A stretch of 32,000 nt of DNA from Candidatus Saccharimonadota bacterium. GTDB lineage: Bacteria > Patescibacteriota > Gracilibacteria > UBA1369 > 2-02-FULL-48-14. The stretch lies in the NCBI GenBank assembly GCA_965230905.1, contig OZ246396.1, forward strand, positions 240,001 to 272,000, given 5' to 3'. Positions 9,810-28,109 of the stretch are shown piece by piece (within the stretch, counting starts at the first letter, position 1; every line of letters begins with the position of its first letter). Both the position numbers and the translations under genes were made by a program. A model generated the notes under the pieces. That model did not search any database. It was not told where the DNA came from and was given only the letters and a program-made list of their open reading frames with translations.

Positions 9810-11042
9810 ATGCAAAACCGTAACTATTCCCTCTGGGTTCTCTACGACTTCGCTAACTCGCTTGCGTTTGTAAACGTTTCTTTTTATTTCAGTCTTTGGC
9901 TGGTTTCCGACCACGGATTCTCAGATTTTTGGGTGAGCATTGCTACGGTCGCTTCCACGGTTTTGTTGCTTTTGACTTTGCCTTTTTTGAGTCATTTTTC
10001 GGATAGGACAGGTAAAAGGATCCTCTTCTTAAGGGTTTTCACCCTTCTTTCCATTTTGAGTTTGGGCATATTGGGTTGGTTGGCCATGAAGTTCCCCTTC
10101 ACCACTACACTTGGATTTACCGTGCTGCTCTTTTACTTCTTTTTTCAACTTTTTTTTCAAGGAAGTTTTTCTTTTTACAATGCATTCATTCAAGACTTTA
10201 CGGCTAAAAAAACAGCTGACCAAGTCTCTGGGATGGGAATGGGCTTCGGACAATTGGGGAACATGATTGGGATTTTGCTAGTTCTGCCCTTGGCAGAAGG
10301 AAGTATGAACTTACTTGGAGAAAGTGGACGTGGAGCCACTTTTTTCGCCTCTGCAGGCTTGTTTTTAATTTTTGCGCTGCCAAGCTTGCTTTTTCTGAAA
10401 GATAAAAGAGCACCGACGCCTTTGACTGAAAGGTTTAATTTTACCGGCAGTTTAAAGAAAGTTTTAAAAACACGTGGAGTACTTGCCTATTTGCTTTCTT
10501 ACTATTTTTTCGCAGACGCCATTTTGACGCTTCAACTTTTTGTAGGCCTTTATTTAGAAGAAGTCGCTGGCATGGACGACCGACAAAAAACACTGACCAT
10601 GGTGGTAGCCCTGATTTGTGGATGTCTAGGTGCTTGGCTGGCCCCTGCTTTTGCGCGCTGGATTAAAAGCAGTTACCGAGCGATTAAGTATTTAATACTT
10701 AGCTGGGCTATTTTACTGGGGCTGTTTAGTATGGCGGTTGCGCCGCTCTTTTTCTCTGTGCTCATCGTGCTAAATGGATTTGCTTTTGGTGCGCTTTTTG
10801 CACTTTCGCGTTCGTATTATTCTGAAATTACTCCTAAAGAGAGCCAGGCTGAGTATTTCAGCATTTATGTACTTTTTGAACGAGCTGCCTCCATTTTAGG
10901 ACCTTTAGTTTGGAGCAGCACGGTGCTTGTTTTTGCCAGCCATGGCGGAGATAAATATCGTTTTGCCATGTTTTCGCTCGCCATATTAGTTGCTATTAGT
11001 TTTGGGATTTTTCTCAAGGTTCCTAAAGACAAAACTTTATGA
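9810..11042 (+). CDS. MFS transporter (UMF1/Atg22-like subfamily by N-terminal motif)
   Basis: 410 aa with about 12 hydrophobic segments. The N-terminus WVLYDFANSLAFVNVSFYFSLWL is typical of this MFS subgroup. Its stop overlaps the start of the next gene (ATGA). Confidence 0.8.
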   Translation: MQNRNYSLWVLYDFANSLAFVNVSFYFSLWLVSDHGFSDFWVSIATVASTVLLLLTLPFLSHFSDRTGKRILFLRVFTLLSILSLGILGWLAMKFPFTTTLGFTVLLFYFFFQLFFQGSFSFYNAFIQDFTAKKTADQVSGMGMGFGQLGNMIGILLVLPLAEGSMNLLGESGRGATFFASAGLFLIFALPSLLFLKDKRAPTPLTERFNFTGSLKKVLKTRGVLAYLLSYYFFADAILTLQLFVGLYLEEVAGMDDRQKTLTMVVALICGCLGAWLAPAFARWIKSSYRAIKYLILSWAILLGLFSMAVAPLFFSVLIVLNGFAFGALFALSRSYYSEITPKESQAEYFSIYVLFERAASILGPLVWSSTVLVFASHGGDKYRFAMFSLAILVAISFGIFLKVPKDKTL

Positions 11043-12613
11043 AAAGCTGCATAAATTGCCAAAGCTCCTTCACCATTCGACCCGAAGATGAAGTTTTTTA
11101 TGGACGCATGGATGTTCCCGCACCGACTCACTGCCCCGCGTGCCGTGCACAACGGCGTTGGGCCTTTCGCAATCAATACAATCTCTACAAACGAACCTGT
11201 GACTTTAGTGGAAAAGAAATGCTCTCGCTTTATTCGCCGGACAAGCCATTGAAGGTTTATGAGGAATCGGTCTGGTGGAGCGACGCCTGGGATCCGCTGG
11301 ACTATGGACGAGACTATGACTTCTCGCGTCCATTTTTTGATCAATATAAAGAGCTGTTCTGGGCGGTTCCGCGCCATGCCATGCACCAGGATGGGACCAA
11401 TGAAAATTGCGATTATATAACGTATGGCGGCGGTAACAAAAGTTGCTACTTGGCCTTTGCGTGTATTTATAGTGAGGATATTTATTTCAGTAGTTTTTTG
11501 CTTTTCTGCAAAGACAGCTTGGACTCCACGCGCTGCATTGAAAGTTCACTTTTGTACGAATGCGTGGACTGTGAAAAATCGTATGAATGTTTTTTCTGCA
11601 AAGATTGTATCTCGTGCCAAGATTCGCTTTTCCTCGATGACTGCCGGAATTGTAAAAACTGTATCGGCTGTAAAAATTTGCGAAATAAGGAATATCACAT
11701 TTTTAATGAACCCGTTTCCAAGGAGGAATTTGAACGGGTGAAGGCGGAGATTTTAAAAGATGGCGGCCGGAGCTTTAAAGAGAAGTTTGATGCCTGGCGG
11801 CTGACGCAGCCTTACGTGTATGCACGCATAAACAACTCCGAAAATTGCGTGGGAAATTATTTGGAGAATGCGCACAATTCCTACCATTCTTTCGACTTGG
11901 TTATGGGTGCGGATGACTGCAACTATTGTATAAACGCGGGGTGGAAAGGAAAAGACATGTGGGACTGCACCATGACCGGGAAAGAGGCGGAACTTTTGTA
12001 TGAAATGCACGCCACGGTGAATACTCAACACTCTGCTTTTTGTAGTTTTATTCGCAGTTGCTCAGACATTTATTACTGCGACAGTATGGATGCGGCGCAG
12101 AATTGTTTTGGTTCCATCGGACTTCGCCATAAACAGTACTGCATCTTAAACAAGCAATATTCGAAGGAGGCGTATGAAGCGCTGCTACCCCGAATCATTG
12201 AACATATGAAGGCAACAGGTGAGTGGGGCGAGTTTCCGCCGATTTGGCTTTCGCCTTTTGCGTACAATGAGACCTTGGCGAATGAACATTTTCCTCTGAC
12301 TAAGGAGGCTGCTTTGGCGAAGGGCTATACGTGGAAAGACGAAGCAGTGACCGCAGTTGAGGGCGGCTGCAAAAGCTGTGGAAGAGCCTACAAAGTCATT
12401 CCGCAGGAAAAGGCCTTTTATGGACGTATGGGATTGCCGGAGCCTGAGAATTGCTGGAAATGCCGGCACGAACGGCGGTTCCGTAGCCGAAACCCTTATC
12501 GCTTGTGGAAGAGGAATTGCCACAAGTGTCAAAAGGAAATCGAAACCAGCTATTCCCCCGAGAGGCCGGAAATTGTATATTGTGAAACCTGTTATTTAGC
12601 AGACGTCTACTGA
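11039..12613 (+). CDS. Cys-rich paralog P1 (uncharacterised family: terminal double zinc-ribbon-like modules flanking two CxxC-repeat blocks)
   Basis: 524 aa. N-module: CINCQSSFTIRPEDEVFYGRMDVPAPTHCPACRAQRR. Central motifs: CFGSIGLRHKQYCILNKQYSKEAYEAL and TGEWGEFPP. The C-terminus ends CETCYLADVY-stop. Confidence 0.9.
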   Translation: MKSCINCQSSFTIRPEDEVFYGRMDVPAPTHCPACRAQRRWAFRNQYNLYKRTCDFSGKEMLSLYSPDKPLKVYEESVWWSDAWDPLDYGRDYDFSRPFFDQYKELFWAVPRHAMHQDGTNENCDYITYGGGNKSCYLAFACIYSEDIYFSSFLLFCKDSLDSTRCIESSLLYECVDCEKSYECFFCKDCISCQDSLFLDDCRNCKNCIGCKNLRNKEYHIFNEPVSKEEFERVKAEILKDGGRSFKEKFDAWRLTQPYVYARINNSENCVGNYLENAHNSYHSFDLVMGADDCNYCINAGWKGKDMWDCTMTGKEAELLYEMHATVNTQHSAFCSFIRSCSDIYYCDSMDAAQNCFGSIGLRHKQYCILNKQYSKEAYEALLPRIIEHMKATGEWGEFPPIWLSPFAYNETLANEHFPLTKEAALAKGYTWKDEAVTAVEGGCKSCGRAYKVIPQEKAFYGRMGLPEPENCWKCRHERRFRSRNPYRLWKRNCHKCQKEIETSYSPERPEIVYCETCYLADVY

Positions 12614-14244
12614 TGCCAAACTGTAAAAACTGCCAAAGCAATTTCTCTCTGGAAGAAGCGGATTTTGAATTTTTGAAAAAGTTTGATGTGCCGGCCCCTA
12701 CGTTCTGCCCCGATTGCCGGAATCAACGGCGGCTGGTTTTCCGAAATGACCGAAATTTTTATCGGCGGGAATGTGGGATGTGTAAAAAAGTCATCATTGC
12801 GATCTTTTCGGAGGACAAACCTTTCCCTGTGTACTGCAAGGACTGTTATTTGAGTGACGCTTTCGATCCGCTGCAATACGGCGTGGATTTTGACCCTTCA
12901 CGGCCGTTTATTGAGCAATTTGCAGAGATGCGTGCGCGGGTGCCGCGAGTGGCGAGCTTTCAAACACAGAGCGAAAATTCCGACTACACCGTGCACAGCG
13001 GCAAGAATAAAAACTGCTACATGGGCAGCTCGTACATGGAGTGTGAAAATTCTTATTACAGCCATTGGCTTTTTTATGCGAAAGACTGTCTGGACCTGTA
13101 TTTGTGCCAAAAAATGGAGCGCTGTTATTTCTGTACGAGCTGTGATGATTGCTACGGCTCCGCGTATTTGGAAAATTGCCAGGGTGTATCCTTTTCGTAT
13201 TTAAGTTTTGACTGTCGGAACTCGTCGCAACTGATCGGCTGCGTGGGACTGAGGCAAAAGACTCATCAGATTTTGAACCAATCTGCGAGCGAGGAGGAGC
13301 TTGCGAGCACACTTAAAAAACTCAACACGGACCCGGCTTTTCGCGCCGAATTTCAAAGAAAATATGATGAGCTTCGTTTGCAAGTGCCTGTGCCAGAAAT
13401 GTGGGTTAAGAACAGCGAAAATGTAAGTGGAAATTACATCACGAATTGCCGCAATGCTCAGCATTCATACAATGTGCGTGAGCTTGAAGACGCTCGTCAC
13501 GTTTACGAAGTTGGCCATTTGAAAGATGGAATGGATGTGACTCACTGCGCCAATGGTGAGTTCATTTATGAGGTGAAGGCGGTGATCGATTTGAGCTTCA
13601 GTAAGTTCTGTAATTTGTGTTACCAAAGCAGTCAGCTTGAATACTGCGACAACTGCCAATCCACGAAAAATTGTTTTGGCAGTATGGGGCTGAAGGGGCA
13701 TTCCTATTGCATTTTGAATAAGCAATACAGCAAGGAGGCTTACGAAAGTCTGCGCGCGCAGATCATTGAAAAAATGCGAGCAACTGGCGAGTATGGCGAG
13801 TTTTTTCCTGCAGCGCTGAGCCCTTTTGGCTACAACGAAACCAAGGCTATGGATCACTATGAACTCACGCGCGAAGAAGCCCTGGCTAAAGGCTTTAAGT
13901 GGAAGGACGAAGATCCCCGTTCATATCAGCCGCAGACCGCAGTACTTGCCGACGACATTGCAGCCGTACCCGACAGCATCACGAATGAAATTTTGGCGTG
14001 TAGCGAGTGCCGAAAGAATTTCAAAATAATCCCCCAGGAGTTGAAACTTTATCGTGAGCTCGGCGTGCCGGTGCCAAAAAAGTGTTTCGGTTGTCGACAT
14101 AAGGAAAGAAAGTCCCTCCAAAATCCTCGTAAGCTGTGGAATCGAGAGTGCGCGCAGTGTAAGGCCGCCATTGTTACGACTTATGGACCTGAGAAAAAAG
14201 AAAGGGTTTTTTGTGAGAAGTGTTATTTAGCTGCGATTTATTGA
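12613..14244 (+). CDS. Cys-rich paralog P2
   Basis: 543 aa, 35 Cys by my hand count. The start overlaps the P1 stop (TGATG). All four ribbon-like CxxC...CxxC sets are intact. Confidence 0.9.
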   Translation: MPNCKNCQSNFSLEEADFEFLKKFDVPAPTFCPDCRNQRRLVFRNDRNFYRRECGMCKKVIIAIFSEDKPFPVYCKDCYLSDAFDPLQYGVDFDPSRPFIEQFAEMRARVPRVASFQTQSENSDYTVHSGKNKNCYMGSSYMECENSYYSHWLFYAKDCLDLYLCQKMERCYFCTSCDDCYGSAYLENCQGVSFSYLSFDCRNSSQLIGCVGLRQKTHQILNQSASEEELASTLKKLNTDPAFRAEFQRKYDELRLQVPVPEMWVKNSENVSGNYITNCRNAQHSYNVRELEDARHVYEVGHLKDGMDVTHCANGEFIYEVKAVIDLSFSKFCNLCYQSSQLEYCDNCQSTKNCFGSMGLKGHSYCILNKQYSKEAYESLRAQIIEKMRATGEYGEFFPAALSPFGYNETKAMDHYELTREEALAKGFKWKDEDPRSYQPQTAVLADDIAAVPDSITNEILACSECRKNFKIIPQELKLYRELGVPVPKKCFGCRHKERKSLQNPRKLWNRECAQCKAAIVTTYGPEKKERVFCEKCYLAAIY

Positions 14245-15833
14245 TGCCAAATTTAAACCAAAACTGCCGCGTCACCGGGAAACCCTTTGTTATCACGGAA
14301 TGGGAGCAGGCTTTCTTGAAACGCATGGACATGCCCCTGCCCACGCTGTGCCCGGAGGAAAGGCAGCTGAAACGACTGGCGCATCGGAATGAACGTTCGC
14401 TCTACCAAAGGACTTGCGACCACTGTCAAAAAAATATGGTGGCCCTGTACCCAGCGGCAACTCCATTCCCTGTGTACTGCGGAGATTGTTTTTGGGGTGA
14501 TTCCTGGGACGGCGGCGGCTATGGCCAAGGCTATGATTTGAATCGACCTTTTTTTGAACAATTCAAAGAGCTGCTGAATCGCGTACCGCGGGTGGCCGTG
14601 CTGTCACGCAACTCACAAAATAGCGACTACACCAATTGTGAAGAACAAAATAAAAATTGCTACCTCACTTTTGGTGGTGGCTATTCCGAAGACTGCATGT
14701 ACAGCAACTTTGAACTGTACTGCAAAAATTGCGTGGACTGCTCGTACGTGCACAAGTGTGAACTTTGCTACGAATGCATGGACCTCGAGAATTGTTACCA
14801 TTGTTTTTATCTTACTGATTCCAAAAACTGCAGTGATTGTTTTTTGGGGAATGACTTGATCGGCTGTCACGATTGTTTCGGCTGCAAAGGTTTAAGGAAT
14901 AAGAATTTTTATATTTTTAACGAGCCTTATTCGGAAGAAGCCTATAAGAAGAAAGTGGCGGAGCTTTTACCAAAGATTCAAGATGCAGACGTGCAAGCCC
15001 GTTTTCAAGAACTGGTGCGAACCGTGCCGACTAAATTTGCGCAAATAAACAACTGCGAAAACAGCACGGGTGGATACCTATCCAACAGTCAAAATTGCCA
15101 GTGGTGCTTTGACGCGAAGAATGGGAAAGATTCGATGTATGTCACGTTTGGGGAAAGTTTTAAAGATGTGCTCGACTGCAACGTGAGTTACGTGGGGACC
15201 GAGCTGGTTTATAATTCTCAAAGCGTGTGTCTCAGTGCTTCGTTTGTACGCTGTTGTAATTTTTCATGGACCATAAGTTTTTCCGACTATTCTGATTCCT
15301 GTCACTACTCGAAGAATTTGTTTGGCTGCATTGGGCTGAAACATAAAGAGTACTGCATCCTCAACAAACAATATTCAAAGGAAGACTATGAAGCTTTAGC
15401 CGCGCAAATCATTGAAAAAATGAGGGCGGCTGGCGAGTGGGGCGAGTTTTTTCCTTTCTCTCCTTTTGCCTACAATGAGACCATTGCTCAAGAATATTTT
15501 CCGCTCACGCGTGAGGAAGCGGCCCGGCGTGGGTACGGATGGAAAGAAGAAAATTCCATCAATAATGCCACTGGAGAAGCGGGCACCTGTAAGCAGTGCA
15601 GCAAGGTATATCGCATCATCCCGCAGGAGAAAGCTTTCTATGAAAAGACGGGTCTGACTTCCCCACTGTTTTGCTACAATTGTCGCCACAAAAACCGTAT
15701 CAAACATCGTAATCCACCTTTCTTGTGGACGCGAGCCTGTGCGGAATGCAAAACACCGGTGGCGAGCAACTACCGTCCTGAACGGCCAGAGAAGATTGTG
15801 TGTGAGAAGTGTTATTTGGCTTCGGTTTATTGA
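14244..15833 (+). CDS. Cys-rich paralog P3
   Basis: 529 aa from the ATG at 14244, which overlaps the P2 stop (TGATG). The ORF track's 14220 start would add 8 unconserved residues. Confidence 0.88.
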   Translation: MPNLNQNCRVTGKPFVITEWEQAFLKRMDMPLPTLCPEERQLKRLAHRNERSLYQRTCDHCQKNMVALYPAATPFPVYCGDCFWGDSWDGGGYGQGYDLNRPFFEQFKELLNRVPRVAVLSRNSQNSDYTNCEEQNKNCYLTFGGGYSEDCMYSNFELYCKNCVDCSYVHKCELCYECMDLENCYHCFYLTDSKNCSDCFLGNDLIGCHDCFGCKGLRNKNFYIFNEPYSEEAYKKKVAELLPKIQDADVQARFQELVRTVPTKFAQINNCENSTGGYLSNSQNCQWCFDAKNGKDSMYVTFGESFKDVLDCNVSYVGTELVYNSQSVCLSASFVRCCNFSWTISFSDYSDSCHYSKNLFGCIGLKHKEYCILNKQYSKEDYEALAAQIIEKMRAAGEWGEFFPFSPFAYNETIAQEYFPLTREEAARRGYGWKEENSINNATGEAGTCKQCSKVYRIIPQEKAFYEKTGLTSPLFCYNCRHKNRIKHRNPPFLWTRACAECKTPVASNYRPERPEKIVCEKCYLASVY

Positions 15834-15873
15834 CTTTTTAAAACCTAAAAGTAAAATGGACTTGTTATATGAG

Positions 15874-15924
15874 GAAGTCGCGTCGCAAAGGGGTTGGTCC
15901 CGCGCCATGCGGCTTCATTTTTTA
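15874..15924 (+). terminator. Intrinsic terminator candidate after P3
   Basis: The outer stem pairs GAAGUCGC (15874-15881) with GCGGCUUC (15909-15916) and includes one U-G wobble. Inner CGC/GCG and GGG/CCC pairs follow, then A plus six U (15918-15923). The U-tract exists only on the + strand. Confidence 0.5.
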
Positions 15925-16391
15925 TATTCGAGTTTTTCCCTCAGATCAGATAGAGAGGGTATCCTTTTGTTAAAAGCTTTCTTCAAAAGCAGGGAACAAA
16001 ATCTGTAATCTGGGGATAGGACTAACATAAACTTACTTTTTCCGAGTAAGTATCTGACTAAACAGGCAAAATCACCGTCATTACTAAGCAACAAAGCTTG
16101 GTCGTATTCGGGGTAATCGATCATTGATTGCAAGACAAGCTCTGCATCAACATTAGCTTTAATCTTTCCATTAACAGAGATGGCTTCCTTAAAAATAAGT
16201 TCATAACCTATTTTCTTTAACCTTCTATAAAGATCTTCATTTTCAGGAAGGTATCCTAAAAATATATAAGTTCTTTTAATCTTATATTTGTCTCTTAAAT
16301 ATGTATAAAGTTTAGCCCAGTCTAGCTGCCAACCAGCCGATTTAGTGGCTCGATATACGTTATGTGCATCAATAAAAGCAAAGTTGTTCAT
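15915..16391 (-). CDS. NYN-domain (LabA/DUF88-like) putative ribonuclease
   Basis: 158 aa. FIDAHNVY at the N-terminus, NVDAELVLQSM and LLSNDGDFACLVRYL match the NYN acidic-residue pattern. Confidence 0.8.
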   Translation of the reverse strand: MNNFAFIDAHNVYRATKSAGWQLDWAKLYTYLRDKYKIKRTYIFLGYLPENEDLYRRLKKIGYELIFKEAISVNGKIKANVDAELVLQSMIDYPEYDQALLLSNDGDFACLVRYLLGKSKFMLVLSPDYRFCSLLLKKAFNKRIPSLSDLREKLEYKK

Positions 16392-16456
16392 TTTTAAAGT
16401 CTAAAACGAGTTCAAATATTTGGCTACTCACCAATAGCTCTCTAATCGAGAATTTC

Positions 16457-16498
16457 GCGTTGTTGTAAGTCTGACAACACCCTGCTATTTTGTAGTAT
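16457..16498. promoter_or_regulatory. Shared GCNTTGTTGT motif within an inverted repeat, plus a candidate P4 promoter
   Basis: GCGTTGTTGT at 16457-16466. Inverted repeat TGTTGT (16461-66)-N7-ACAACA (16474-79). Possible -35 CTGACA (16471-76), 16-nt spacer, -10 TAGTAT (16493-98). Confidence 0.4.
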
Positions 16499-16512
16499 CT
16501 AACAAGCTAAAG

Positions 16513-18183: not shown

Positions 18184-18184
18184 A

Positions 18185-21432: not shown

Positions 21433-23051
21433 TGAACGCTTGTAAGCAATGCCAAAAACCGTTTGAAGTGACCGAGGTGGAACGAGAATTTTTGAAGAAA
21501 GTGGCGCCTACCGTGGGTGGACGTCAGTTTGAAATTCCCGAGCCTAAACTGTGCCCGGATTGCCGACGACAACGACGTTACGCGCAACGGAATGACCGAA
21601 ATATTTACCGCCGAACCTGTGACAAAACTGGGAAGTCCATTATCTCGGCGCATCACCCCGATAAACCCTTCCCCGTCTACGCCATTGATGTGTGGTGGAG
21701 CGATGCCTATGACCCTAAAGCCTACGGGCGTGACTTTGATTTTAGCCGGACTTTTTTTGAGCAGTTTAAAGAGCTTTCTTATACAGTTCCGCGGGCGGCT
21801 TCCATTGTGGTGGCTTCTGAAAATTGTGATTACACCATCTTCACCCTGCAGAGCCGGAACTGTTTTCTTTCGTCTCGTTTGGCGGAGGTAGAAGATATTT
21901 ATTATTCCTACCTCGCTTTTAAAAGCCGTTCCTGTTTTGACGGCTACAATTTGATGGAATGTGAACTGTGCTACGAGTGCGTGGACTGTGGGAAATGCTA
22001 CCAATGTATGTACACCACCAGTTCAAAAGGCTCCTTCAACTTGATGTTCTGCAGCGACATGTCTGGTTCCAATAATTGTTTTGGATGCGTGGGGATGGTT
22101 CAAAAACAATACTGCTTTTTCAATCAACAACTCAGCAAAGAAGAGTACGAAAAACGCGTGAAGGAATGCTTCGATGGCTCTCACGAAAGTGTGCTGCGCT
22201 GCCAAGCGGCGTTTGCCGAACATAGCAAAAAATTCCCTGTACGAGCAACGCAAGTTTTCAACTCTGATAATGCACAAGGCAGCCACATATTTGAGAGCAA
22301 AAACGTCATCAACTCCTACGATATCGCCGGCTCGGAAGATATCATCAATTGCACTCAAACTGAAACGAGCAAAGACATGATGGACTGTGACTTCACCTAC
22401 GTCTGCGAGCTCTCTTACGAGCTTATTTCAGGAGGGAAAAGCATGCGGAATTTGTTTTCTTTCTCGCTGGTGGGAAACAACAACGACGTCATGTATTCGC
22501 ACTATTGCAATAATGGGAATCAGAATTTGTTTGGATGCGTGGGCATGAAAAACAGCAAATATTGCATCTTTAACAAGCAGTACACCAAAGAGGAATACGA
22601 AGAACTCGTGCCACGAATCATTGAGCACATGCAGAAGACAGGCGAGTGGGGTGAGGGGATACCCATTGAACTTTCTACCATGTCTTATAACGAAAGTGCT
22701 GCGCAAGAACGATTTCCCCTGACTAAAGAAGAAGTGCTGGCTCGCGGATGGACTTGGTACGACGCGCCCGAAAGCACGGTGGCGCAGGCCGAAGGCGAGA
22801 ATGTGGTTCACTGTGAAGTAAGCGGCAAATCTTTCCGTCTCATCCCACAGGAATTGAAGTTTTACAAAGACATGGGCCTGCCCTTGCCCACGCGTCACCC
22901 CGATGTCCGCCACCAGGATCGTTTAAATCGCCGCACGCCCTACCAATTGCATGAAACCAAGTGTCGCAAGTGTGGAGAGGACATGATGACCGACCAAAGC
23001 GAAAACAAGCTTATTTACTGCCAGAAGTGTTATTTGGCAGAGACTTACTGA
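21432..23051 (+). CDS. Cys-rich paralog P7
   Basis: 539 aa. The ATG overlaps the P6 stop (TGATG). Confidence 0.9.
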   Translation: MNACKQCQKPFEVTEVEREFLKKVAPTVGGRQFEIPEPKLCPDCRRQRRYAQRNDRNIYRRTCDKTGKSIISAHHPDKPFPVYAIDVWWSDAYDPKAYGRDFDFSRTFFEQFKELSYTVPRAASIVVASENCDYTIFTLQSRNCFLSSRLAEVEDIYYSYLAFKSRSCFDGYNLMECELCYECVDCGKCYQCMYTTSSKGSFNLMFCSDMSGSNNCFGCVGMVQKQYCFFNQQLSKEEYEKRVKECFDGSHESVLRCQAAFAEHSKKFPVRATQVFNSDNAQGSHIFESKNVINSYDIAGSEDIINCTQTETSKDMMDCDFTYVCELSYELISGGKSMRNLFSFSLVGNNNDVMYSHYCNNGNQNLFGCVGMKNSKYCIFNKQYTKEEYEELVPRIIEHMQKTGEWGEGIPIELSTMSYNESAAQERFPLTKEEVLARGWTWYDAPESTVAQAEGENVVHCEVSGKSFRLIPQELKFYKDMGLPLPTRHPDVRHQDRLNRRTPYQLHETKCRKCGEDMMTDQSENKLIYCQKCYLAETY

Positions 23052-23803
23052 GCCACAAACGCCGTTGCCCCCAGCCAGGCTAGATTGAATACGGCGCGTT
23101 GGGTGCGTGCGTACACCGCGGATTCGATGTGCACTCCAATGAGTTCGTCCGGGTTGAGCGACATGATGGCGGCCGAGTTGTCGTAGATGGAAATTTGGTT
23201 TTCGAAGCGGAATTCCTTGGGGTTCACAAAGAGGATTTCTACGAGTTCTTCAGGGTATTTTTTTGGATAAAAGCGTTTAATGAACTGGCGTGCTTCTTCG
23301 GTGGACGGCGAGAGCAGGCGGGTTTTTATACGACGTTTCACGAGTTTTTCTGTGTACGAAGGGAGGTAGTCGGGGAGGAGTTTTCCAAGCGCTTCCAAGT
23401 TGGTGTAACCCAGAACTTCCGACTTAGCTTCGAGCGTTTGCTCAAAAATGGTTTTGATTCCATCAATGCCTTCATAGGAGCGAATGATTGGTTTGAAGGC
23501 CAGGGCATTCGTGACGGAAAGTAGCTCAGGCAGCAATTTTTTGGCGCTTTGGTATTGTTCCTCCATTTGGTTCACCAGCACTTGCGGCGGCTCAGCCACA
23601 AAGAACTTCACTTTTCCTTTAAAATTAGCCGTCACAAGACCACGTTTGCGCAGGCTTTCCAGTACATAATAACAGTTCACACGTGCGATTTTAGCCTTGC
23701 TGGCGATGGTACTTGCGAAGGAGCCACCCAGTTCCAAAACTGTGAGGTAAACCTGGGCTTCTTCTTCCGAAAGACCGAATTCTTGTAGCTTTTCTTTGAG
23801 CAT
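23045..23803 (-). CDS. TrmB-family transcriptional regulator (N-terminal winged helix plus C-terminal domain)
   Basis: 252 aa. LQEFGLSEEEAQVYLTVLELGGSFASTIASKAKIARVNCYYVLESLRKRGLV is a typical TrmB-type HTH. The gene is convergent with P7 (7-nt overlap) and divergent from P8. Confidence 0.8.
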   Translation of the reverse strand: MLKEKLQEFGLSEEEAQVYLTVLELGGSFASTIASKAKIARVNCYYVLESLRKRGLVTANFKGKVKFFVAEPPQVLVNQMEEQYQSAKKLLPELLSVTNALAFKPIIRSYEGIDGIKTIFEQTLEAKSEVLGYTNLEALGKLLPDYLPSYTEKLVKRRIKTRLLSPSTEEARQFIKRFYPKKYPEELVEILFVNPKEFRFENQISIYDNSAAIMSLNPDELIGVHIESAVYARTQRAVFNLAWLGATAFVAQ

Positions 23804-23816
23804 GTCGCTTGGATTC

Positions 23817-23873
23817 GCTTTGTTGTAAAAAGTTTTCTACAACTAATATAACCTGTAATAACCGATTTTCCAA
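23817..23873. promoter_or_regulatory. Shared GCNTTGTTGT motif in a 22-bp near-palindrome, plus a candidate minus-strand promoter for the TrmB-like gene
   Basis: GCTTTGTTGT at 23817-23826. GTTGTAAAAAG/TTTTCTACAAC at 23822-23843 matches at 9 of 11 palindromic positions. On the minus strand, TTGGAA (23873-23868), a 17-nt spacer and TATATT (23850-23845) would place the transcription start inside the palindrome. Confidence 0.45.
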
Positions 23874-23930
23874 GGCAATGTTAGTTATAAACTTACAGCT
23901 ATGCTAAAATTGAGTTAATTAAAATTCATT

Positions 23931-25616
23931 ATGACCAATTGCAAACACTGCCAAACCAGCTTTGAGATCCGTCCAGAGGATTTGGCCTTTTACGACGAGA
24001 TGTCTCCGGTTTTTGGCGGGAAAAAGTTTGCGATTCCGGCGCCTACGCTCTGTCCCGATTGCCGCTGGCAACGACGTATGAGTTTCCGAAATGAACGCAC
24101 GCTGTATTTGCGAAAATGTGACCTCACCGGAAAGTCCATGGTGAGTATGCATCCCGCTGGCACCCCCTTCCCCGTTTACAGCATTACCGAGTGGCTGAGC
24201 GATAAGTGGGAACCTCTAGACTTCGGCCGTGACTTCGATTTCAATCGGCCCTTCTTCGATCAATTCAAAGAGATGTGTGAGCAAATCCCGCATTTTAGTT
24301 TGTTTGTGGACCCCCACTTGGACATCAACTCCGACTACACCAACTGCTCGAACAGTGCGAAAAATTGTTATCTCATTTCGCAGGCGGAAGTGAATGAGGA
24401 TTGTTATTACTCCAGAGGAATCAACCGTTCCAAAGATTGTGGAGACTGTTTGCGCATTCATCAATGTGAGCTCTGCTACGAATGCACCAGTATGATGGGC
24501 TGTTACCACTGTCTCTATTCGCAAGAATGTGAAACCTCCTCGGATTGTTACTTTTCCAGCGACTTAAAGAGCTGCCAAAATTGTTTCGGCTCTCATGATT
24601 TGATTCAAAAACAGTATTATTGGTTCAACCAGCCCCTCGGCAAAGAAGCGTGGGAGAAACGTATGAAAGAATTTGTATGGAGCCGCGAAAATATCGAATG
24701 GGCCAAGCAAGAAAGTGAAAAATTAAAGCTCTCACTGCCTCGCCGCGCGGTCCACACCACTCAGTGTGAAAATTCCTCTGGTGACCACATCATGCAATGT
24801 AAGAATTCTCACCTAGTTTTTGATTCTTTGTATTTGGAAGATTCTGCTTATTGTTACGAAGTTTTCAACGGCGCCAAAAAGGCCTACGACTACTCCATGT
24901 GGGGCGTGAATGCGGAATTTATTTACGAGTGTAACGGGTGTGGATTCAATGTAAACAACCTGCTCTTTTCAAATCACTGTTGGCAAAACGTGAGCAATTT
25001 AATTTACTGCGAAAGCTCTTTCCCGAGCGTAAAAGATTGTTTTGGATGCTTTGGTTTGAAGCGCAAACAGTACTGTATTTTGAATAAGCAATATAGCAAA
25101 GAGGAGTATGAGGCTTTGGTGCCACGAATCATTGAACATATGCAAAAGACGGGCGAGTGGGGTGAGTTCTTCCCTGCTAGTATTTCTCCTTATGGCTACA
25201 ATGAATCCCTCGCAGCCTCCTTCTTTCCACTCAGCAAAGAAGAGGTTTTAAAGCGCGGTTGGAATTGGTATGAAAAAGAAGAAGCAATCGACCAATATAT
25301 TGGCCCCAACGTGAAAATTCCAAACAGTATTCAGGAAGTTGACGACGCTATTTGCAGCCAAATTTTAAAATGTGAAAAGACCGGAAAACTTTACAAAATC
25401 ATTCCCCAAGAATTGAAGTTGTATCGAACTTTGGGAGTTCCCCTGCCTACGCTTTGCCCCGAAGAAAGACACCAGGCCAGAATGACGGCGCGTAATCCAC
25501 GACATTTGTGGGAACGTACCTGTCAAAACTGTCAGAAAGGCGTTCAGAGTTCCTACTCGCCCGAAAGGCCTGAGAAAGTCTTTTGTGAGGAATGTTATTT
25601 AAAAACGGTTTACTAG
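23931..25616 (+). CDS. Cys-rich paralog P8
   Basis: 561 aa. The N-terminus is MTNCKHCQTSFEIRPEDLAFY, and the C-terminus ends CEECYLKTVY-stop. Confidence 0.9.
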   Translation: MTNCKHCQTSFEIRPEDLAFYDEMSPVFGGKKFAIPAPTLCPDCRWQRRMSFRNERTLYLRKCDLTGKSMVSMHPAGTPFPVYSITEWLSDKWEPLDFGRDFDFNRPFFDQFKEMCEQIPHFSLFVDPHLDINSDYTNCSNSAKNCYLISQAEVNEDCYYSRGINRSKDCGDCLRIHQCELCYECTSMMGCYHCLYSQECETSSDCYFSSDLKSCQNCFGSHDLIQKQYYWFNQPLGKEAWEKRMKEFVWSRENIEWAKQESEKLKLSLPRRAVHTTQCENSSGDHIMQCKNSHLVFDSLYLEDSAYCYEVFNGAKKAYDYSMWGVNAEFIYECNGCGFNVNNLLFSNHCWQNVSNLIYCESSFPSVKDCFGCFGLKRKQYCILNKQYSKEEYEALVPRIIEHMQKTGEWGEFFPASISPYGYNESLAASFFPLSKEEVLKRGWNWYEKEEAIDQYIGPNVKIPNSIQEVDDAICSQILKCEKTGKLYKIIPQELKLYRTLGVPLPTLCPEERHQARMTARNPRHLWERTCQNCQKGVQSSYSPERPEKVFCEECYLKTVY

Positions 25617-26368
25617 ATCCTGTCCCACATCCAGTTGAATAAAGTGAGCAAGGATTGATGGAGATGTTTTTCACGAATTTTAATGCCCACTTCATTCTTA
25701 GGGTCGTAACTATTAAAAATTACGTAGTCGTTTACCAAAATCACATCTGAGAAAAAGAGGGCGGAACTTTCCATCTCTTTGATCTGGTGGTTTGGATTGT
25801 TCACATGACTTTTGTACCAATCGGTCATAGGGCCAGCGACTAGAATTTCACGGATCTGTACCTTGGTATTGGACGTTGATTTTAAAAAGTTTTTGACCAG
25901 ATTTTTATAACGTTCCGTTTTGATGGCGAGCTGGGGATTGAAAAAAGAAGTGAAGTCCCCACTCAGCAAAGTCTCTTCCAATTGGAGGTACACGGCCTCC
26001 ATGGATTCAAACGTGGAAATTTCAAAAGCTCCAAAGTCCTGAGTTTTCGGAAGGAGCTGCTTAAGGTGAGTTTGTAAAAGTTGCGTCGCACTTTGAACAT
26101 CTTCGAATTGCTCACGAGCGTGGGCTTCCAAAATTTTGGCCGTCATATCGGGGGCCAAACAACTGAAGTAGGTCACTGAGCCGCGTTTTTTACGAGCTAC
26201 GATTCCCAGATGGACGAGCGTATCCAAAGCGGCGTATACCGTGGTGCGTTTGAGGTGCAATTGTTTAGCCAGCACGCTGGCGATGCTCTCTCCACGCTCA
26301 AATAAATGGAGGAAAACGGCTTGTTCCGTGGCATTGAGTCCGCAGGTTTGGAGGAGGTTTTCGAGCAT
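25613..26368 (-). CDS. TrmB-family transcriptional regulator, second copy
   Basis: The HTH segment is LNATEQAVFLHLFERGESIASVLAKQLHLKRTTVYAALDTLVHLGIV. I prefer the ATG at 26368 over 26413 for three reasons. MLENLLQTCGL aligns with MLKEKLQEFGL of the first copy. An AAGG SD sequence lies upstream. A good minus-strand promoter sits where the longer ORF would begin. Confidence 0.75.
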   Translation of the reverse strand: MLENLLQTCGLNATEQAVFLHLFERGESIASVLAKQLHLKRTTVYAALDTLVHLGIVARKKRGSVTYFSCLAPDMTAKILEAHAREQFEDVQSATQLLQTHLKQLLPKTQDFGAFEISTFESMEAVYLQLEETLLSGDFTSFFNPQLAIKTERYKNLVKNFLKSTSNTKVQIREILVAGPMTDWYKSHVNNPNHQIKEMESSALFFSDVILVNDYVIFNSYDPKNEVGIKIREKHLHQSLLTLFNWMWDRI

Positions 26369-26372
26369 TTGC

Positions 26373-26432
26373 GCCTTGTTGTCAATTAAATTTTGACAGT
26401 ATAAGTTTAGCATTTTCAGGTTAAATTTGCAA
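26373..26432. promoter_or_regulatory. Shared GCNTTGTTGT motif in an inverted repeat, plus a candidate minus-strand promoter for the second TrmB-like gene
   Basis: GCCTTGTTGT at 26373-26382. Inverted repeat TGTCAA (26380-85)-N7-TTGACA (26393-98). On the minus strand: TTGCAA (26432-26427), 17-nt spacer, TAAACT (26409-26404). Confidence 0.45.
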
Positions 26433-26442
26433 GTAAGCTGCT

Positions 26443-26478
26443 TAGACTATTGTTGAAATATGACAAATAGTCTAGTAT
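26443..26478. promoter_or_regulatory. Second palindrome, overlapping a candidate P9 promoter
   Basis: Perfect 9-bp arms TAGACTATT (26443-51) and AATAGTCTA (26466-74). Candidate -35 TTGTTG (26450-55), 17-nt spacer, -10 TAGTAT (26473-78). Confidence 0.4.
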
Positions 26479-26498
26479 TACATCTTGTAACAAACTCT

Positions 26499-28109
26499 AT
26501 GGAAACCCTTCAAACGGCCTGCGCACACTGCCAAAAGAATTTCGAACTCGATGCACAGGATCAAGCGTTCTATAAGGAAATCAACGTCCCCCACCCCACC
26601 CAGTGCCCGGATTGCCGTGAACAGCGCCGGCTCGCGTGGCGAAATGAACGCACACTCTACTTAAGGAAATGCGACCTCACGGGTGAACCCACGCTTTCCG
26701 TTTTTTCAGAGGACAAGCCTTATAAGGTTTATAAAAATGACCATTGGTATTCCGATAAATGGAATCCGCTGGATTACGGGCAGGACTTCGATTTTTCTCG
26801 GCCTTTCTTTGAACAGTTTGATGAGCTTTTACATAAGGTCCCGCAGCTCGCGCTTTCCACGACCGGGAACCAGAATTCCGATTTCATCAACCAAGCGGGA
26901 TGGTGCAAGGATTGCTATTTGATCTTTGAGGCTGATTTCAATGAAAAGTGTATGTACTCGACCCACATTGGAGATTCCAGAGACTGCATGGACGGCCTTC
27001 AAGTGATGAAGTCAGAACTTTGTTACGAGTGCATCGATTGTCAAAATGGCTACAACCTGCGTTTTGCTCAGGATTCCATGAATTGTTCGGATTCTTGGTT
27101 CTTAAAAAACTGTATCGGGTGTTCGAATTGTTTTGGTTGTGTGAATCTACGGAATCAAAAGTTCTGCATTTATAATGAACAGTACTCACAGGAAGATTAT
27201 TTTAAAAAATTGGCTAGTTTTGATCTGCAAAATCGCACCGGCCTAGAAAAGATGCGGGACGATTTCACCGCCTACGCCGCCCAATTTCCTCACAAAAATT
27301 ACCATGGCGTGCAGACGGAAAATTGCAAGGGTGACTACTTATACAACTCGCAAAATTGCCACGGTTGTTTTGACGTGAGCAATTCGCAGGATTGCAAATT
27401 TGTAACCGATTCGCGTAACTGTAAGAAGGTTTACGATATGACGGTTTTCGGTGCCCAAAAGGGAGTGGAGTTTTGCTACGAGTGTCATGAAGTTGGACAC
27501 GGCGTACGGAATTTATACTTCTGTGATCAGGTTTGGGACAGCTGTTATGAGCTATACTACACCAAGCTCAGCATGCAAAATTGTCACCATTTGTTTGGAT
27601 GTATTGGTTTCCGCCGCGGCTCGTATTGTATTTTGAATAAGCAGTACACAAAGGAGGAATATGAAGCCTTGGTGCCGCGCATTATTGAGCACATGAAAAA
27701 GACCGGCGAGTGGGGTGAATTCTTCCCTATCAGCATGAGTCCGTTTGCCTACAATGAAACCCTTGCGGAGCAGTATTTTCCACTCGGAAAAGAAAAGGCG
27801 GAGGCCCTGGGATACGGGTGGAAAGAAGAAGCTAAAACGCCCATAGTACCGGGCCTGCCAGCCTGTGATACGTGCGGAAAAAACTACAAAATTGTGAGCC
27901 AAGAAGAAGAATTTTACCAAAAGATGAAACTGCCGCATCCTACGAGTTGTTCTGAATGCAGACACAAGAAGCGCTCGGCGCTGCGAAATCCACGAAAACT
28001 CTGGGACCGGGCGTGTGCACAGTGCTCTACAGCTATTCAAACCAGCTATTCGCCGGAACGGAGCGAAAAAGTCCTTTGTGAAGCGTGTTATCTGAAAGAG
28101 ACTTACTAA
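26499..28109 (+). CDS. Cys-rich paralog P9
   Basis: 536 aa from the ATG at 26499 (METLQTACAHCQ...). The upstream ATG at 26460 would add 13 residues absent from all the other paralogs and lies upstream of the predicted -10, but it cannot be excluded. Confidence 0.85.
   Translation: METLQTACAHCQKNFELDAQDQAFYKEINVPHPTQCPDCREQRRLAWRNERTLYLRKCDLTGEPTLSVFSEDKPYKVYKNDHWYSDKWNPLDYGQDFDFSRPFFEQFDELLHKVPQLALSTTGNQNSDFINQAGWCKDCYLIFEADFNEKCMYSTHIGDSRDCMDGLQVMKSELCYECIDCQNGYNLRFAQDSMNCSDSWFLKNCIGCSNCFGCVNLRNQKFCIYNEQYSQEDYFKKLASFDLQNRTGLEKMRDDFTAYAAQFPHKNYHGVQTENCKGDYLYNSQNCHGCFDVSNSQDCKFVTDSRNCKKVYDMTVFGAQKGVEFCYECHEVGHGVRNLYFCDQVWDSCYELYYTKLSMQNCHHLFGCIGFRRGSYCILNKQYTKEEYEALVPRIIEHMKKTGEWGEFFPISMSPFAYNETLAEQYFPLGKEKAEALGYGWKEEAKTPIVPGLPACDTCGKNYKIVSQEEEFYQKMKLPHPTSCSECRHKKRSALRNPRKLWDRACAQCSTAIQTSYSPERSEKVLCEACYLKETY

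Follow-up and report, generated by a model that had tools for sequence, protein, structure and literature searches.

The 32,000-nucleotide window analysed here carries a nine-gene array of a very large, uncharacterised and apparently cytoplasmic protein family from one branch of ultra-small CPR bacteria. We infer, tentatively and with rather less than full conviction, that these ancient paralogues may act as diversified, Zn-stabilised binding subunits together with a dedicated soluble ATPase.

An ORF check and full-length alignment confirmed the nine plus-strand paralogues (524-561 aa) that a sequence-only reading had placed here, with the same coordinates and no internal stops (Table 1); its start codons fit the alignment better than longest-ORF starts for copies 3, 5, 6 and 9. 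Together the genes span ~14.8 kb, bearing out its figure of 46% of the window. They align colinearly from end to end, with 41-46% identity to copy 1, and are arranged as translationally coupled sub-operons. The shared motifs listed in that reading hold at the consensus level but not in every copy: the N-terminal CxxC pair is missing from copy 3, and the first C-terminal finger is degenerate in copies 4, 5, 7 and 8. The C-terminal ...CYLxx(V/I/T)Y-stop is found in 9/9 copies, as is an intact CxxC-x17-CxxC finger 2 of the C-module. One NYN-domain gene and two TrmB-like genes interrupt the array and a coupling-protein-like ATPase follows it, as described before.

Table 1. Features of the array and its surroundings, in window positions.
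Feature	Position	Strand	Remarks
MFS transporter	9810..11042	+	stop overlaps copy 1 start (ATGA); same operon as array here
Copy 1	11039..12613	+	524 aa; start overlaps upstream MFS gene end by 4 nt
Copy 2	12613..14244	+	543 aa; TGATG stop/start overlap with copy 1; four terminal fingers all intact
Copy 3	14244..15833	+	529 aa; TGATG overlap with copy 2; N-terminal finger 1 degenerate (CTCE)
NYN-domain gene	15915..16391	-	inserted between sub-operons; found in 1/81 loci
Inverted repeat GTTGTAAGTCTGACAAC	16462..16478	.	related to GTTGTAAAAAGTTTTCTACAAC; 35 bp upstream of copy 4
Copy 4	16513..18183	+	556 aa, GTG start; heads second sub-operon; C-module finger 1 lost
Copy 5	18185..19795	+	536 aa; begins 1 nt past copy 4 stop
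Copy 6	19795..21432	+	545 aa; TGATG overlap with copy 5
Copy 7	21432..23051	+	539 aa; TGATG overlap with copy 6
TrmB-like wHTH regulator 1	23045..23803	-	252 aa; divergent from copy 8
Operator-like palindrome GTTGTAAAAAGTTTTCTACAAC	23822..23843	.	divergent region, TrmB1 / copy 8
Copy 8	23931..25616	+	561 aa; divergent from TrmB-like regulator 1
TrmB-like wHTH regulator 2	25613..26413	-	266 aa; divergent from copy 9
Copy 9	26499..28109	+	536 aa; divergent from TrmB-like regulator 2; final copy ahead of ATPase
Copy 9 N-terminal Zn-ribbon module	26499..26780	+	aa 1-94; zf_Tbcl-like finger 1, Arg-rich helix, degenerate finger 2; net charge +4
Copy 9 core A	26865..27200	+	aa 123-234; ~eight 12-residue turns, C-[YF]-x-C-x-x-C-x-x-C-[ED]-[DN]; cap NCFGCxxLRNKxYxIxN..SKEEY
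Copy 9 core B	27297..27644	+	aa 267-382; second solenoid homologous to core A, most Cys replaced
Copy 9 'mid' domain	27645..27833	+	aa 383-445; IIEHMxKTGEWGEFFP...SPFxYNETxA..YFPL.KEEA
Copy 9 C-terminal Zn-ribbon module	27852..28106	+	aa 452-536; finger 1 + basic helix (+8), CxxC-x17-CxxC finger 2; ends ...CYLKETY-stop
Soluble DUF8128 + VirB4/VirD4/HerA-type P-loop ATPase	28359..30602	+	747 aa; Walker A GKSGTGKS at residue 334; no TM segment

Cysteine makes up 5.8-7.6% of the nine proteins (31-40 residues per copy), compared with 0.4-1.7% in ten neighbouring proteins. No signal peptide or TM segment was found in any copy (maximum 19-residue hydropathy 0.6-1.35), and the proteins look cytoplasmic, supporting the original placement. 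Known-domain matches were limited to the terminal zinc-ribbon modules (zf_Tbcl / CxxC-x17-CxxC); the ~350-aa core matched nothing in Pfam, NCBIfam, PADLOC or PDB sequences, nor in Foldseek searches of PDB and BFVD, and no effector or enzymatic domain was recognisable. The earlier verdict of an unassignable family stands for the core, but not for the two terminal modules, which are recognisable Zn-ribbon domains. Sources name the family only 'hypothetical' or 'zinc-ribbon domain containing'. It comprises at least 5,660 cluster representatives at 50% identity, and at least 590 stretches in species-representative genomes carry it, nearly all from Peribacteria, Peregrinibacteria and Gracilibacteria; it is essentially confined to that branch of Patescibacteria and absent from viral contigs (IMG/VR). 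Its genes usually lie in arrays, commonly of up to 9-10 copies, with at least 16 copies in one MAG.

Each protein is a pseudo-twofold repeat resulting from two internal duplications, with the N-module homologous to the C-module (hhalign 99.8%, E 2e-29) and core A to core B (hhalign 99.9%, E 4e-34). The order from the N-terminus is a Zn-ribbon module, a solenoid (12 residues per turn, with cap helix), a second, Cys-poor solenoid, a small, highly conserved domain and another Zn-ribbon module, which closes with the invariant free C-terminus. The small 'mid' domain is the region most conserved between paralogues (59%). In a Zn-ribbon module, a zf_Tbcl finger leads through a basic Arg-rich helix to a CxxC-x17-CxxC finger; the finger-plus-helix parts carry a positive net charge (+4, +8), whereas the whole protein is acidic (-6). 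Zinc binding by the terminal fingers is plausible because of their homology to CxxC-x17-CxxC and zf_Tbcl domains, and two small CxxC-x17-CxxC proteins bind Zn by ICP-MS (PMC12704099).

Within the cores, the cysteines follow a strict (Cxx)n lattice whose super-period is 12 residues: Cys-Cys distances of 3/6/9/12 occur 119/52/70/73 times, against 0-7 times at each non-multiple of 3 up to a distance of 18. This lattice points to two putative solenoids of 12 residues per turn, conserved inside and variable on one face, in keeping with an AF2 model of copy 9 (pLDDT 85.7, pTM 0.88) in which beta-bridges recur at i/i+12 in both cores. Every third solenoid residue is small, mostly Cys, and faces inward (small residues at consensus positions 1/4/7/10 in 86/71/57/72%), placing up to four inward Cys in a turn; conservation is higher at inward than at outward positions (1.76 versus 2.63 bits, p = 5e-4), and positions 5, 6, 8 and 9 make up the variable face. 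Lattice Cys are only 30-95% conserved, giving way freely to S/A/G/T/L, above all in core B, and their co-occurrence is highest between positions 12 residues apart (phi 0.36, 0.31, 0.27; background 0.006 +/- 0.093). With this period-3 and period-12 pattern, partial conservation and co-variation one turn away, the core CxxC blocks look unlikely to be independent Zn sites; the zinc-binding proposal of the sequence-only reading is plausible for the terminal fingers and may not extend to the core.

The ATPase, previously regarded as an orphan, proved instead to be the arrays' most specific conserved partner. In a pooled sample, family genes adjoin 26/27 ATPases of its close, soluble subgroup versus 5/73 distant homologues (12/13 versus 1/66 loci in the ATPase-centred sample), and the ATPase lies directly downstream of family genes on the same strand in 16/20 cases, with gaps typically of 16-90 bp. 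The exception in the close subgroup is the ATPase at L083, where the surrounding 10 kb are free of family genes. A hydrophobic N-terminal extension present in 55/73 distant homologues is missing from the close subgroup: the array ATPase is an offshoot, without TM segments, of a VirB4/VirD4/HerA-like, membrane-anchored ATPase found throughout Patescibacteria. It is a conserved terminal gene that typically closes arrays, though just 12/52 array 3' ends (about a quarter) are followed by it.

By sequence comparison, the paralogues are ancient, and they outpace neighbouring genes 3-5 times in rate of evolution. Copies share only 60-87% DNA identity even in their best-conserved segments, without long identical tracts, so the duplications are old, and pairwise DNA comparison gave no sign of recent amplification or gene conversion among the nine. 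Every copy has an orthologue elsewhere (54-74% identity) closer than any paralogue in the window (41-46%), all of which upholds the view of old duplications kept by selection. Family dN is 0.20-0.33, while housekeeping genes give 0.065-0.13, TrmB 0.05-0.07 and the ATPase 0.065, and divergence is spread along the whole protein with no single hypervariable patch.

In the reading we favour, the array proteins would be rigid scaffolds, stabilised by 2-4 Zn, that serve the array ATPase as partner or adaptor subunits, interchangeable but each specific to its paralogue. Going only by charge and type of domain, their two basic Zn-ribbon modules may bind nucleic acid, or would otherwise touch an acidic partner; targets would differ between paralogues through the variable solenoid face. 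The speed at which the family evolves and the turnover of its copy number suggest that it takes part in conflict or interaction (foreign DNA, phage, host or prey) rather than in housekeeping. Counting against this reading, nine paralogues per single motor would, to our knowledge, be unlike any known ATPase-partner system, no effector or enzymatic domain is recognisable, divergence is not limited to one patch, most array ends lack the ATPase, the L083 ATPase stands apart from family genes, and one Bdellovibrionota genome has a lone copy with no partner.

[quoted passage not shown] The ATPase does carry T4CP Pfam domains above cut-offs (T4SS-DNA_transf 31.3, TrwB_AAD_bind 35.6, TraG-D_C 25.1 bits) and counts DotL and Cagbeta among its fold relatives, alongside VirB4/TrwK and HerA; the free ...CYLxxVY terminus is invariant, the family evolves fast with variable copy number, and the Cys ladders could form disulfides if exported. 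These lineages are also considered host dependent, and Patescibacteria hold many orphan T4CP homologues with unassigned roles. However, the array ATPase lacks the membrane anchor kept by distant homologues and finds its closest fold match in VirB4 rather than VirD4; the 81 family-centred loci showed no VirB-type or relaxase genes; and the proteins have no signal peptide, would as tightly folded multi-zinc proteins be poor translocation substrates, and carry their supposed C-terminal signal as a homologue of the N-module.

Adjacency to the ATPase could reflect co-regulation only, and the proteins might then be stand-alone nucleic-acid-binding factors (transcription, RNA or chromatin-like) that share nothing with it but TrmB regulation. 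This is similarly improbable, given the near-universal, same-strand and closely spaced pairing of soluble-subgroup ATPases with family genes, a rate of evolution and copy-number turnover unusual for core nucleic-acid-binding factors, and a large acidic solenoid body that it leaves unexplained. It would accommodate the two basic modules per protein, Zn-ribbon fold matches mostly to DNA-binding zinc fingers, the 40/52 array ends not directly followed by an ATPase, and a partnerless single copy in one Bdellovibrionota genome.

Fainter still is the prospect of metal-handling or redox proteins, whose four internal Cys ladders would hold a column of metal or clusters (Zn/Fe/Cu buffering, storage or electron transfer) with the ATPase unrelated. 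The sheer number of inward Cys and the CxxCxxCxxC runs in most copies would suit such a column, but its ligands are replaced too freely and co-vary with the stacked residue one turn off, not as intra-turn quartets. The organism's ferredoxin-dependent metabolism (POR and Fer2 in the window) and an array flanked by a Fur-family regulator and a ferredoxin (L081) point the same way; yet the nine copies contain no ferredoxin motif (CxxCxxCxxxC) and no Fer4 or other metal-cluster Pfam match, and motifs of the metallothionein type are all but missing (no CxC; a single CC, in copy 3). Bulk metal binding would also leave the conserved non-Cys motifs, nine diverged paralogues and the ATPase link unexplained. 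The idea that an old amplification left mostly decaying, unexpressed relics, the outcome the sequence-only reading had named against itself, is effectively refuted: only the mosaic loss of single zinc fingers speaks for it, against nine intact reading frames, conserved orthologues of each copy in other genomes, dN far below a saturated dS, and preserved translational coupling.

Among the other neighbours, the MFS transporter is not a conserved array partner: none of the other 80 loci has an orthologue, and L079 gives just a 22%-identity MFS match. The TrmB-like and NYN genes had been described together as interruptions; this holds for the NYN gene, which is incidental to the arrays, but the TrmB-like genes are conserved divergent regulators, present in 36/81 loci and divergent from a family member in 32/45 cases. 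Regulator 1 is 88-95% identical in genomes whose family orthologues are 58-74% identical. In the favoured reading, TrmB repressors would choose which sub-operons are expressed. The palindrome GTTGTAAAAAGTTTTCTACAAC is unique in the window (0.02 expected) and kept in the equivalent regions of L042, L041, L028, L074 and L082. The pattern GTTGT-N5-14-ACAAC has 3 matches against 0.34 expected, with GTTGTAAGTCTGACAAC counted twice (overlapping) and the 23822-23843 palindrome as the third.

All nine plus-strand ORFs described by the sequence-only reading were present, without internal stops. The copies range from 524 to 561 aa, and Cys makes up 5.8-7.6% of their residues, as opposed to 0.4-1.7% in ten neighbouring proteins. 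They aligned colinearly over their full length at 41-46% identity and contained no hydrophobic segment (maximum 19-residue hydropathy 0.6-1.35). TGA is the stop codon of six of the nine, and UGA is therefore read as stop in this organism. Because stop and start codons overlap or abut, the array resolves into four sub-operons: the MFS gene with copies 1-2-3 (an ATGA overlap between the MFS stop and the copy 1 start, then TGATG overlaps); copies 4-5-6-7 (a 1-nt gap between 4 and 5, then TGATG overlaps); copy 8 alone; and copy 9, followed 250 bp on by the ATPase. Promoter and terminator scans returned matches at chance level only. DNA identity between copies was 60-87% even in the best conserved segments, with no long identical tracts, bearing out the earlier view of old duplications, free of recent amplification or gene conversion. 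The NYN-domain gene between the two main sub-operons occurred in only 1 of 81 homologous loci, that of this genome, and is likely a recent insertion; the MFS gene had no orthologue in any of the other loci. Both are incidental to the array. A PIN/VapC-like toxin ORF (TIGR00028, 5e-5) lies just 5′ of the MFS gene.

Coordinates of features in the window and in homologous loci (L handles) from other genomes and metagenomes
Feature	Locus	Position (strand)	Remark
PIN/VapC-like ORF	window	9363-9788 (+)	
Copy 1	window	11039-12613 (+)	
Copy 2	window	12613-14244 (+)	
Copy 3	window	14244-15833 (+)	
NYN-domain gene	window	15915-16391 (-)	
Palindrome-related repeat	window	16462-16478	35 bp upstream of copy 4
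Copy 4	window	16513-18183 (+)	
Copy 5	window	18185-19795 (+)	
Copy 6	window	19795-21432 (+)	
Copy 7	window	21432-23051 (+)	
TrmB1	window	23045-23803 (-)	divergent from copy 8
Palindrome GTTGTAAAAAGTTTTCTACAAC	window	23822-23843	TrmB1/copy 8 intergenic region
Copy 8	window	23931-25616 (+)	
TrmB2	window	25613-26413 (-)	divergent from copy 9
Copy 9	window	26499-28109 (+)	
ATPase	window	28359-30602 (+)	747 aa
354-aa acidic protein	window	30562-31626 (-)	convergent with ATPase
tRNA_bind gene	L042	~5040-5370	then next family member
tRNA_bind gene	L074	8022-8354	then next family member
tRNA_bind gene	L002	17448-17780	then 268-aa oxidoreductase-like gene
Anchored-ATPase neighbourhood, example	L143	5640-6692	
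Anchored-ATPase neighbourhood, example	L141	2796-5135	
Anchored-ATPase neighbourhood, example	L126	2290-3147	
Anchored-ATPase neighbourhood, example	L118	11593-12750	
Second ATPase paralogue	L008	12628-15105	hydrophobic N-terminal extension
Second ATPase paralogue	L010	3971-6472	
Single family member, Bdellovibrionota	L069	10004-11647	full length
ORF6N/Rha-like gene	L076	3025-3456	within array
Ferredoxin and Fur-family regulator	L081	1805-2528	directly flank array

Clustering of all neighbours in the 81 family-centred loci yielded two recurrent partners, a TrmB-like regulator (~253 aa; 36 loci) and a VirD4/TraG-like ATPase (~747 aa; 19 loci). The regulator gene stands at a median distance of 141 bp from the family genes and is divergent from a family member in 32 of 45 cases; the TrmB genes, previously taken for mere interruptions of the array, thus belong to the system. 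Five other genomes have kept the palindrome between TrmB1 and copy 8 in the corresponding region, and a related repeat precedes copy 4. TrmB repressors may gate the sub-operons; their HTH gave weak Csa3/CasR matches in PADLOC. In close relatives, a 110-aa tRNA_bind (CsaA/Trbp111-like) gene lies just past the TrmB1 orthologue, and is absent from the equivalent place in the window.

In 16 of 20 cases the ATPase gene directly followed the last family member and shared its strand, typically with 16-90 bp between them. In a separate sample of 80 ATPase-centred metagenome loci, family members stood beside 12 of 13 ATPases of the close subgroup (at least ~43% identity, 745-770 aa), the exception being a 2-kb fragment, and beside only 1 of 66 distant homologues (~40% identity). 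Pooling the samples, 26 of 27 close-subgroup ATPases adjoined family genes, compared with 5 of 73 distant homologues near them, revealing a conserved partner for an ATPase that had been regarded as an orphan. Strong though it is, this association is not universal: the ATPase followed only 12 of 52 array ends, and one close-subgroup ATPase (locus L083) had no family members within 10 kb. A viral homologue (L085) had no Cys-rich neighbours.

The window ATPase starts directly with DUF8128, carries a Walker A motif and has no TM segment (maximum KD19 0.99). Its P-loop NBD and all-alpha domain are homologous to those of T4CPs, with Pfam matches to TrwB_AAD_bind (35.6 bits; cut-off 20.5), T4SS-DNA_transf (31.3; 20.1) and TraG-D_C (25.1; 22), weak TraD and CedD matches in NCBIfam, and matches to phrog_5156 (1.7e-66) and, in PADLOC, to mad8 (1.3e-11) and weakly to HerA. 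An AF2 model (pLDDT 76) was closest in fold to full-length VirB4/TrwK (E 6e-12), followed by HerA, including that of the Sir2-HerA and DUF4297-HerA defence complexes, and then by DotL and Cagbeta. Close-subgroup ATPases have no N-terminal extension (median 1 aa), whereas 55 of the 73 distant homologues have a hydrophobic one (median 49 aa); the array-linked ATPase is thus a soluble offshoot of a Patescibacteria-wide membrane ATPase. The distant, anchored homologues follow DprA, TopA and a Sigma70_r4/HARE-HTH gene and precede MurG and FtsW, a hint that CPR 'orphan T4CPs' act in DNA uptake, chromosome handling or division. Some array-bearing genomes encode a second, more distant paralogue, anchored in at least the L008 locus, so that soluble and anchored ATPases can coexist in one genome. 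Among 5,713 Patescibacteria T4CP homologues only 148 lie near virB4, and the others may have been exapted (PMC12102498), a remark that the soluble-offshoot reading fits. The array offers a handle on the role of these thousands of 'orphan' homologues: this lineage has a TM-less offshoot associated with the arrays, and its membrane-anchored parent occupies a DprA-TopA-sigma-like/dcw neighbourhood. Convergent with the window ATPase is a gene for a 354-aa acidic, Ala/Gly-rich protein without a family match, whose position relative to the ATPase is kept in L042 (75%) and L041 (66%).

The reading that we favour, though only tentatively, is that the copies are rigid, zinc-capped solenoid scaffolds serving as paralogue-specific partner or adaptor subunits of this soluble VirB4/VirD4/HerA-type motor, in a conflict or interaction role. 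Among the closest precedents are NurA-HerA, Sir2-HerA and DUF4297-HerA, in which a soluble HerA/VirB4-clade ATPase gene likewise directly follows that of its presumed partner; the HerA proteins of the latter two are among the fold matches. Unlike in those systems, the presumed partner lacks a nuclease or NADase domain and occurs in arrays of up to ten diverged paralogues, and, unlike HerA anti-phage systems, the array holds a syntenic chromosomal position among housekeeping genes. Nor is it a defence system known to PADLOC-DB, where copies 1 and 9 matched 0 families and only the ATPase and, weakly, the TrmB HTH gave matches. A T4CP-homologous ATPase adjoining tandem paralogues with a shared C-terminal module also resembles the pairing of T4CPs (VirD4/TraD/TrwB) with effector arrays, and the copies could accordingly be pictured as exported effectors handed over by the ATPase. 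This is unlikely: unlike VirD4/TraD/TrwB, the window ATPase has no membrane anchor and is nearest in fold to VirB4, and neither the window nor the set of recurrent neighbours from the 81 loci contained T4SS (VirB4/VirB6...) or relaxase genes. The copies also lack the BID and XVIPCD domains of Bartonella Bep and Xanthomonas XVIPCD effectors.

Within each copy, the order is N-terminal module, core A, core B, mid domain and C-terminal module. Profile-profile comparison revealed that the N-terminal module (~90 aa) is homologous to the C-terminal one (99.8%, E 2e-29), each comprising finger 1, an Arg-rich helix and finger 2. Pfam and NCBIfam recognised only these two ends, and mostly weakly: PF13451 (zf_Tbcl) in three of nine copies (best E 1.3e-7), PF23477 (zf_Tbcl_2) in six (best 1e-4) and TIGR04272 (CxxC-x17-CxxC) in four (best 0.003), most matches falling below curated cut-offs (copy 1, 17.8 bits versus 27). 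A minority of homologues carry PF13451 or PF23477 in precomputed Pfam annotation. The family had been called unassignable, which holds for the core and fails for the ends, recognisable mostly by weak matches as zinc ribbons. Their predicted Cys ligands form two CxxC pairs, with a family-wide conservation of 0.84-0.99 in the two best-kept fingers. All four Cys are present in C-finger 2 of 9/9 copies, N-finger 1 of 8/9, C-finger 1 of 5/9 and N-finger 2 of 3/9, and this mosaic loss leaves 2-4 predicted Zn sites per copy. Both modules share with zf_Tbcl and CxxC-x17-CxxC proteins the spacing of CxxC pairs, ~17-24 residues apart, and the motif F.I...E..FY...P.P..C..CR. Since two small CxxC-x17-CxxC proteins of Methanosarcina mazei bind zinc, as measured by ICP-MS (PMC12704099), zinc binding by the terminal fingers can reasonably be inferred by analogy. 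Known proteins of this class, however, are small and single-domain, whereas the fingers of the copies are no more than the ends of a 540-aa protein with an unrelated core of ~350 aa, and several paralogues lack individual fingers. The finger-1-plus-helix sub-modules are basic (+4, +8) within an acidic protein (median -6), and might contact nucleic acid or an acidic partner. That the copies are stand-alone nucleic-acid-binding factors is nevertheless improbable, as the tight adjacency to the ATPase would go unexplained.

Between these caps, core A is homologous to core B (99.9%, E 4e-34, profile-profile comparison). In the nine copies, Cys-Cys distances of 3, 6, 9 and 12 residues occur 119, 52, 70 and 73 times, and those at non-multiples of three up to 18 only 0-7 times each. 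Across 221 full-length members, the conserved core A Cys fall on four ladders with an exact 12-residue period, in the register C-[YF]-x-C-x-x-C-x-x-C-[ED]-[DN] over ~eight turns; positions 1/4/7/10 are C/S/A/G/T in 86/71/57/72% and almost never charged, and position 2 is aromatic or hydrophobic in 80%. An AlphaFold2 model of copy 9, built on an 81-sequence alignment (pLDDT 85.7, pTM 0.88; ends and mid domain >90, Cys-rich cores 58-77), placed isolated beta-bridges at i/i+12 in core A (152/164, 158/170, 194/206) and along 291, 303, 315, 327, 340 ... 364, 376 in core B. In 483 sequences, the presence of a Cys correlated best with that of a Cys 12 residues away (phi 0.36, 0.31, 0.27; background 0.006 ± 0.093). 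Inward positions were more conserved than outward positions 3, 5, 6, 8 and 9 (1.76 versus 2.63 bits, p = 5e-4), with positions 5, 6, 8 and 9 the most variable (2.7-3.4 bits). Together, periodicity, bridges, covariation and conservation indicate that each core is a 12-residue-per-turn solenoid with one variable face and an interior of small residues, mostly Cys; both solenoids terminate in a cap, ...NCFGCxGLxxKxYCIxNKxYSKEEYE. In the adaptor reading, the variable face would confer target specificity.

Core B keeps the register with most of its Cys replaced; Cys is thus preferred, not obligatory, and a row of independent tetrahedral sites becomes less likely. The CxxC blocks, earlier read as a simple string of zinc sites, are instead a structural lattice. 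On these points, and in the ATPase and TrmB genes belonging to the system, the sequence-only reading needs revision; its observations stand, as does most of its interpretation. The copies are neither metallothioneins nor 4Fe-4S ferredoxins: CxxCxxCxxxC occurs in 0/9 copies and Fer4 gave no matches, CxC is absent and CC occurs only once, in copy 3, and conserved aromatics are many, against the aromatic-free CC/CxC clusters of metallothioneins. With Cys replaceable and cluster motifs lacking, metal storage or redox 'Cys column' proteins are a still less probable identity for the copies than exported effectors or nucleic-acid-binding factors. The beetle antifreeze protein of Tenebrio molitor, a 12-residue-per-turn beta-helix of repeat TCTxSxxCxxAx, resembles the solenoids in repeat length, in pointing a small residue (Cys, Ser or Ala) inward every three positions and in having essentially no hydrophobic core. 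The copies are nonetheless not beetle-type antifreeze proteins: they have no TxT ice-binding motif (TCT 0, T.T 0-2 per copy) and no signal peptide, their Cys co-vary between turns (i/i+12) and not across the turn (i/i+6), and neither Foldseek nor phmmer matched the family to a solved antifreeze protein. Given their bacterial, cytoplasmic origin, the likeness is almost certainly convergent. The strict (Cxx)n, 12-residue solenoid would add a new class to the folds of bacteria and perhaps a new architecture for binding metal, and could serve as a scaffold in engineering.

Every copy in the window is nearer to an orthologue elsewhere (54-74%) than to any of its paralogues within the window (41-46%), so the duplications predate these genome splits; copy number and order turn over between genomes. 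For the same genome pairs, dN was 0.20-0.33 in family orthologues, versus 0.065-0.13 in syntenic housekeeping genes, 0.05-0.07 in TrmB1 and 0.065 in the ATPase. As dS was saturated in every usable orthologue pair, dN/dS is an upper bound only, at or below roughly 0.2, which means purifying selection with fast evolution. Divergence is diffuse, spread over all domains and not confined to a single hypervariable region; similarity between paralogues peaks in the mid domain (59%) and is lowest in the cores and helical linker (23-37%). That the copies are relics can be practically dismissed, all being intact and their orthologues conserved. For the favoured adaptor reading, the rapid evolution, the copy-number turnover and the motor's relatives, which are DNA or protein translocases and in several cases act in defence, suggest the conflict or interaction role. 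A bolder and rather doubtful extension is that arrays and motor form a previously unknown CPR system, in which zinc-capped Cys-ladder solenoids, each with a different variable face, would act as interchangeable recognition subunits through which one hexameric translocase is loaded onto, or directed to, foreign DNA or host- or prey-derived targets. In a stronger variant, the inward Cys ladders would bind a linear column of metal ions, which, if true, would make the proteins metalloproteins of a new architecture.

No known family or system accommodates the core protein or the whole gene set, though the array is built partly of known zinc-ribbon parts. For the family, Pfam, NCBIfam, PADLOC and PHROGs yielded nothing beyond the zinc-ribbon ends except weak matches to PHROGs of no known function (best phrog_15341, 1.6e-4, on core A). 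Against all PDB sequences, the family profile returned only LIM-like noise on the last finger, and isolated core A 0 matches at E <= 10. A phage origin is rejected: tblastn against phages matched only the C-module (29%), a single IMG/VR fragment was not confirmed by HMM, and the family is otherwise absent from 2.9 million viral contigs and GenBank phages. Unusually long members carried no informative extra domain; one 808-aa protein (P0191), seemingly fused to a C-terminal HTH, looks like stop read-through into a downstream HTH gene, and is possibly an alternative-code gene call. Searching the literature on the family, DUF8128 and PF13451, we met no earlier description. Ca. Peribacter riflensis, of the same bacterial lineage, encodes large extracellular proteins of similar Cys percentage (580-3,860 aa), most of which have signal peptides and are annotated as pappalysin- or FG-GAP-like (Anantharaman et al. 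2016, PMC4736985); by their gene table, these are different proteins.

In a word-indexed search, matches levelled off at 6,718 90%-identity clusters. All bear the name 'hypothetical' or 'zinc-ribbon domain containing', and all come from MAGs of Patescibacteria, Peregrinibacteria or Gracilibacteria. Scanned exhaustively with HMMER, 1.84 billion representatives yielded at least 5,660 50%-identity clusters, 2,372 of them at E <= 1e-30, and at least 590 stretches were confirmed in a set of one genome per GTDB species, almost all of them from Peribacteria, Peregrinibacteria, Gracilibacteria or Abawacabacteria. Among the protein dark matter of a major CPR lineage, the family is one of the larger blocks. 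As a rule, members form tandem arrays (294 in 81 loci, up to 9-10 per 21 kb), with at least 16 copies in one MAG (L037 plus L080). In genomes of ~1 Mb, from which most metabolism has been lost, such numbers take up ~2.5% of coding DNA, and the family is therefore probably important for the lifestyle of these bacteria. Outside the CPR, a Bdellovibrionota MAG carries a single member on a 3.26-Mb contig, with neither TrmB nor ATPase partner in an otherwise uninformative neighbourhood; the GC-poorer patch around it (52% versus 58%) suggests transfer, probably horizontally out of CPR into this predatory bacterium. Small ORF6N/Rha-like (phage antirepressor-type) genes lie within some arrays, in L076 and three other loci (10 in total, median 28 bp from family genes). 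In a 1.37-Mb genome (L081), NiFe-hydrogenase maturation genes lie near an array directly flanked by ferredoxin and Fur-family regulator genes, a gene context that may link it to metal or redox status.
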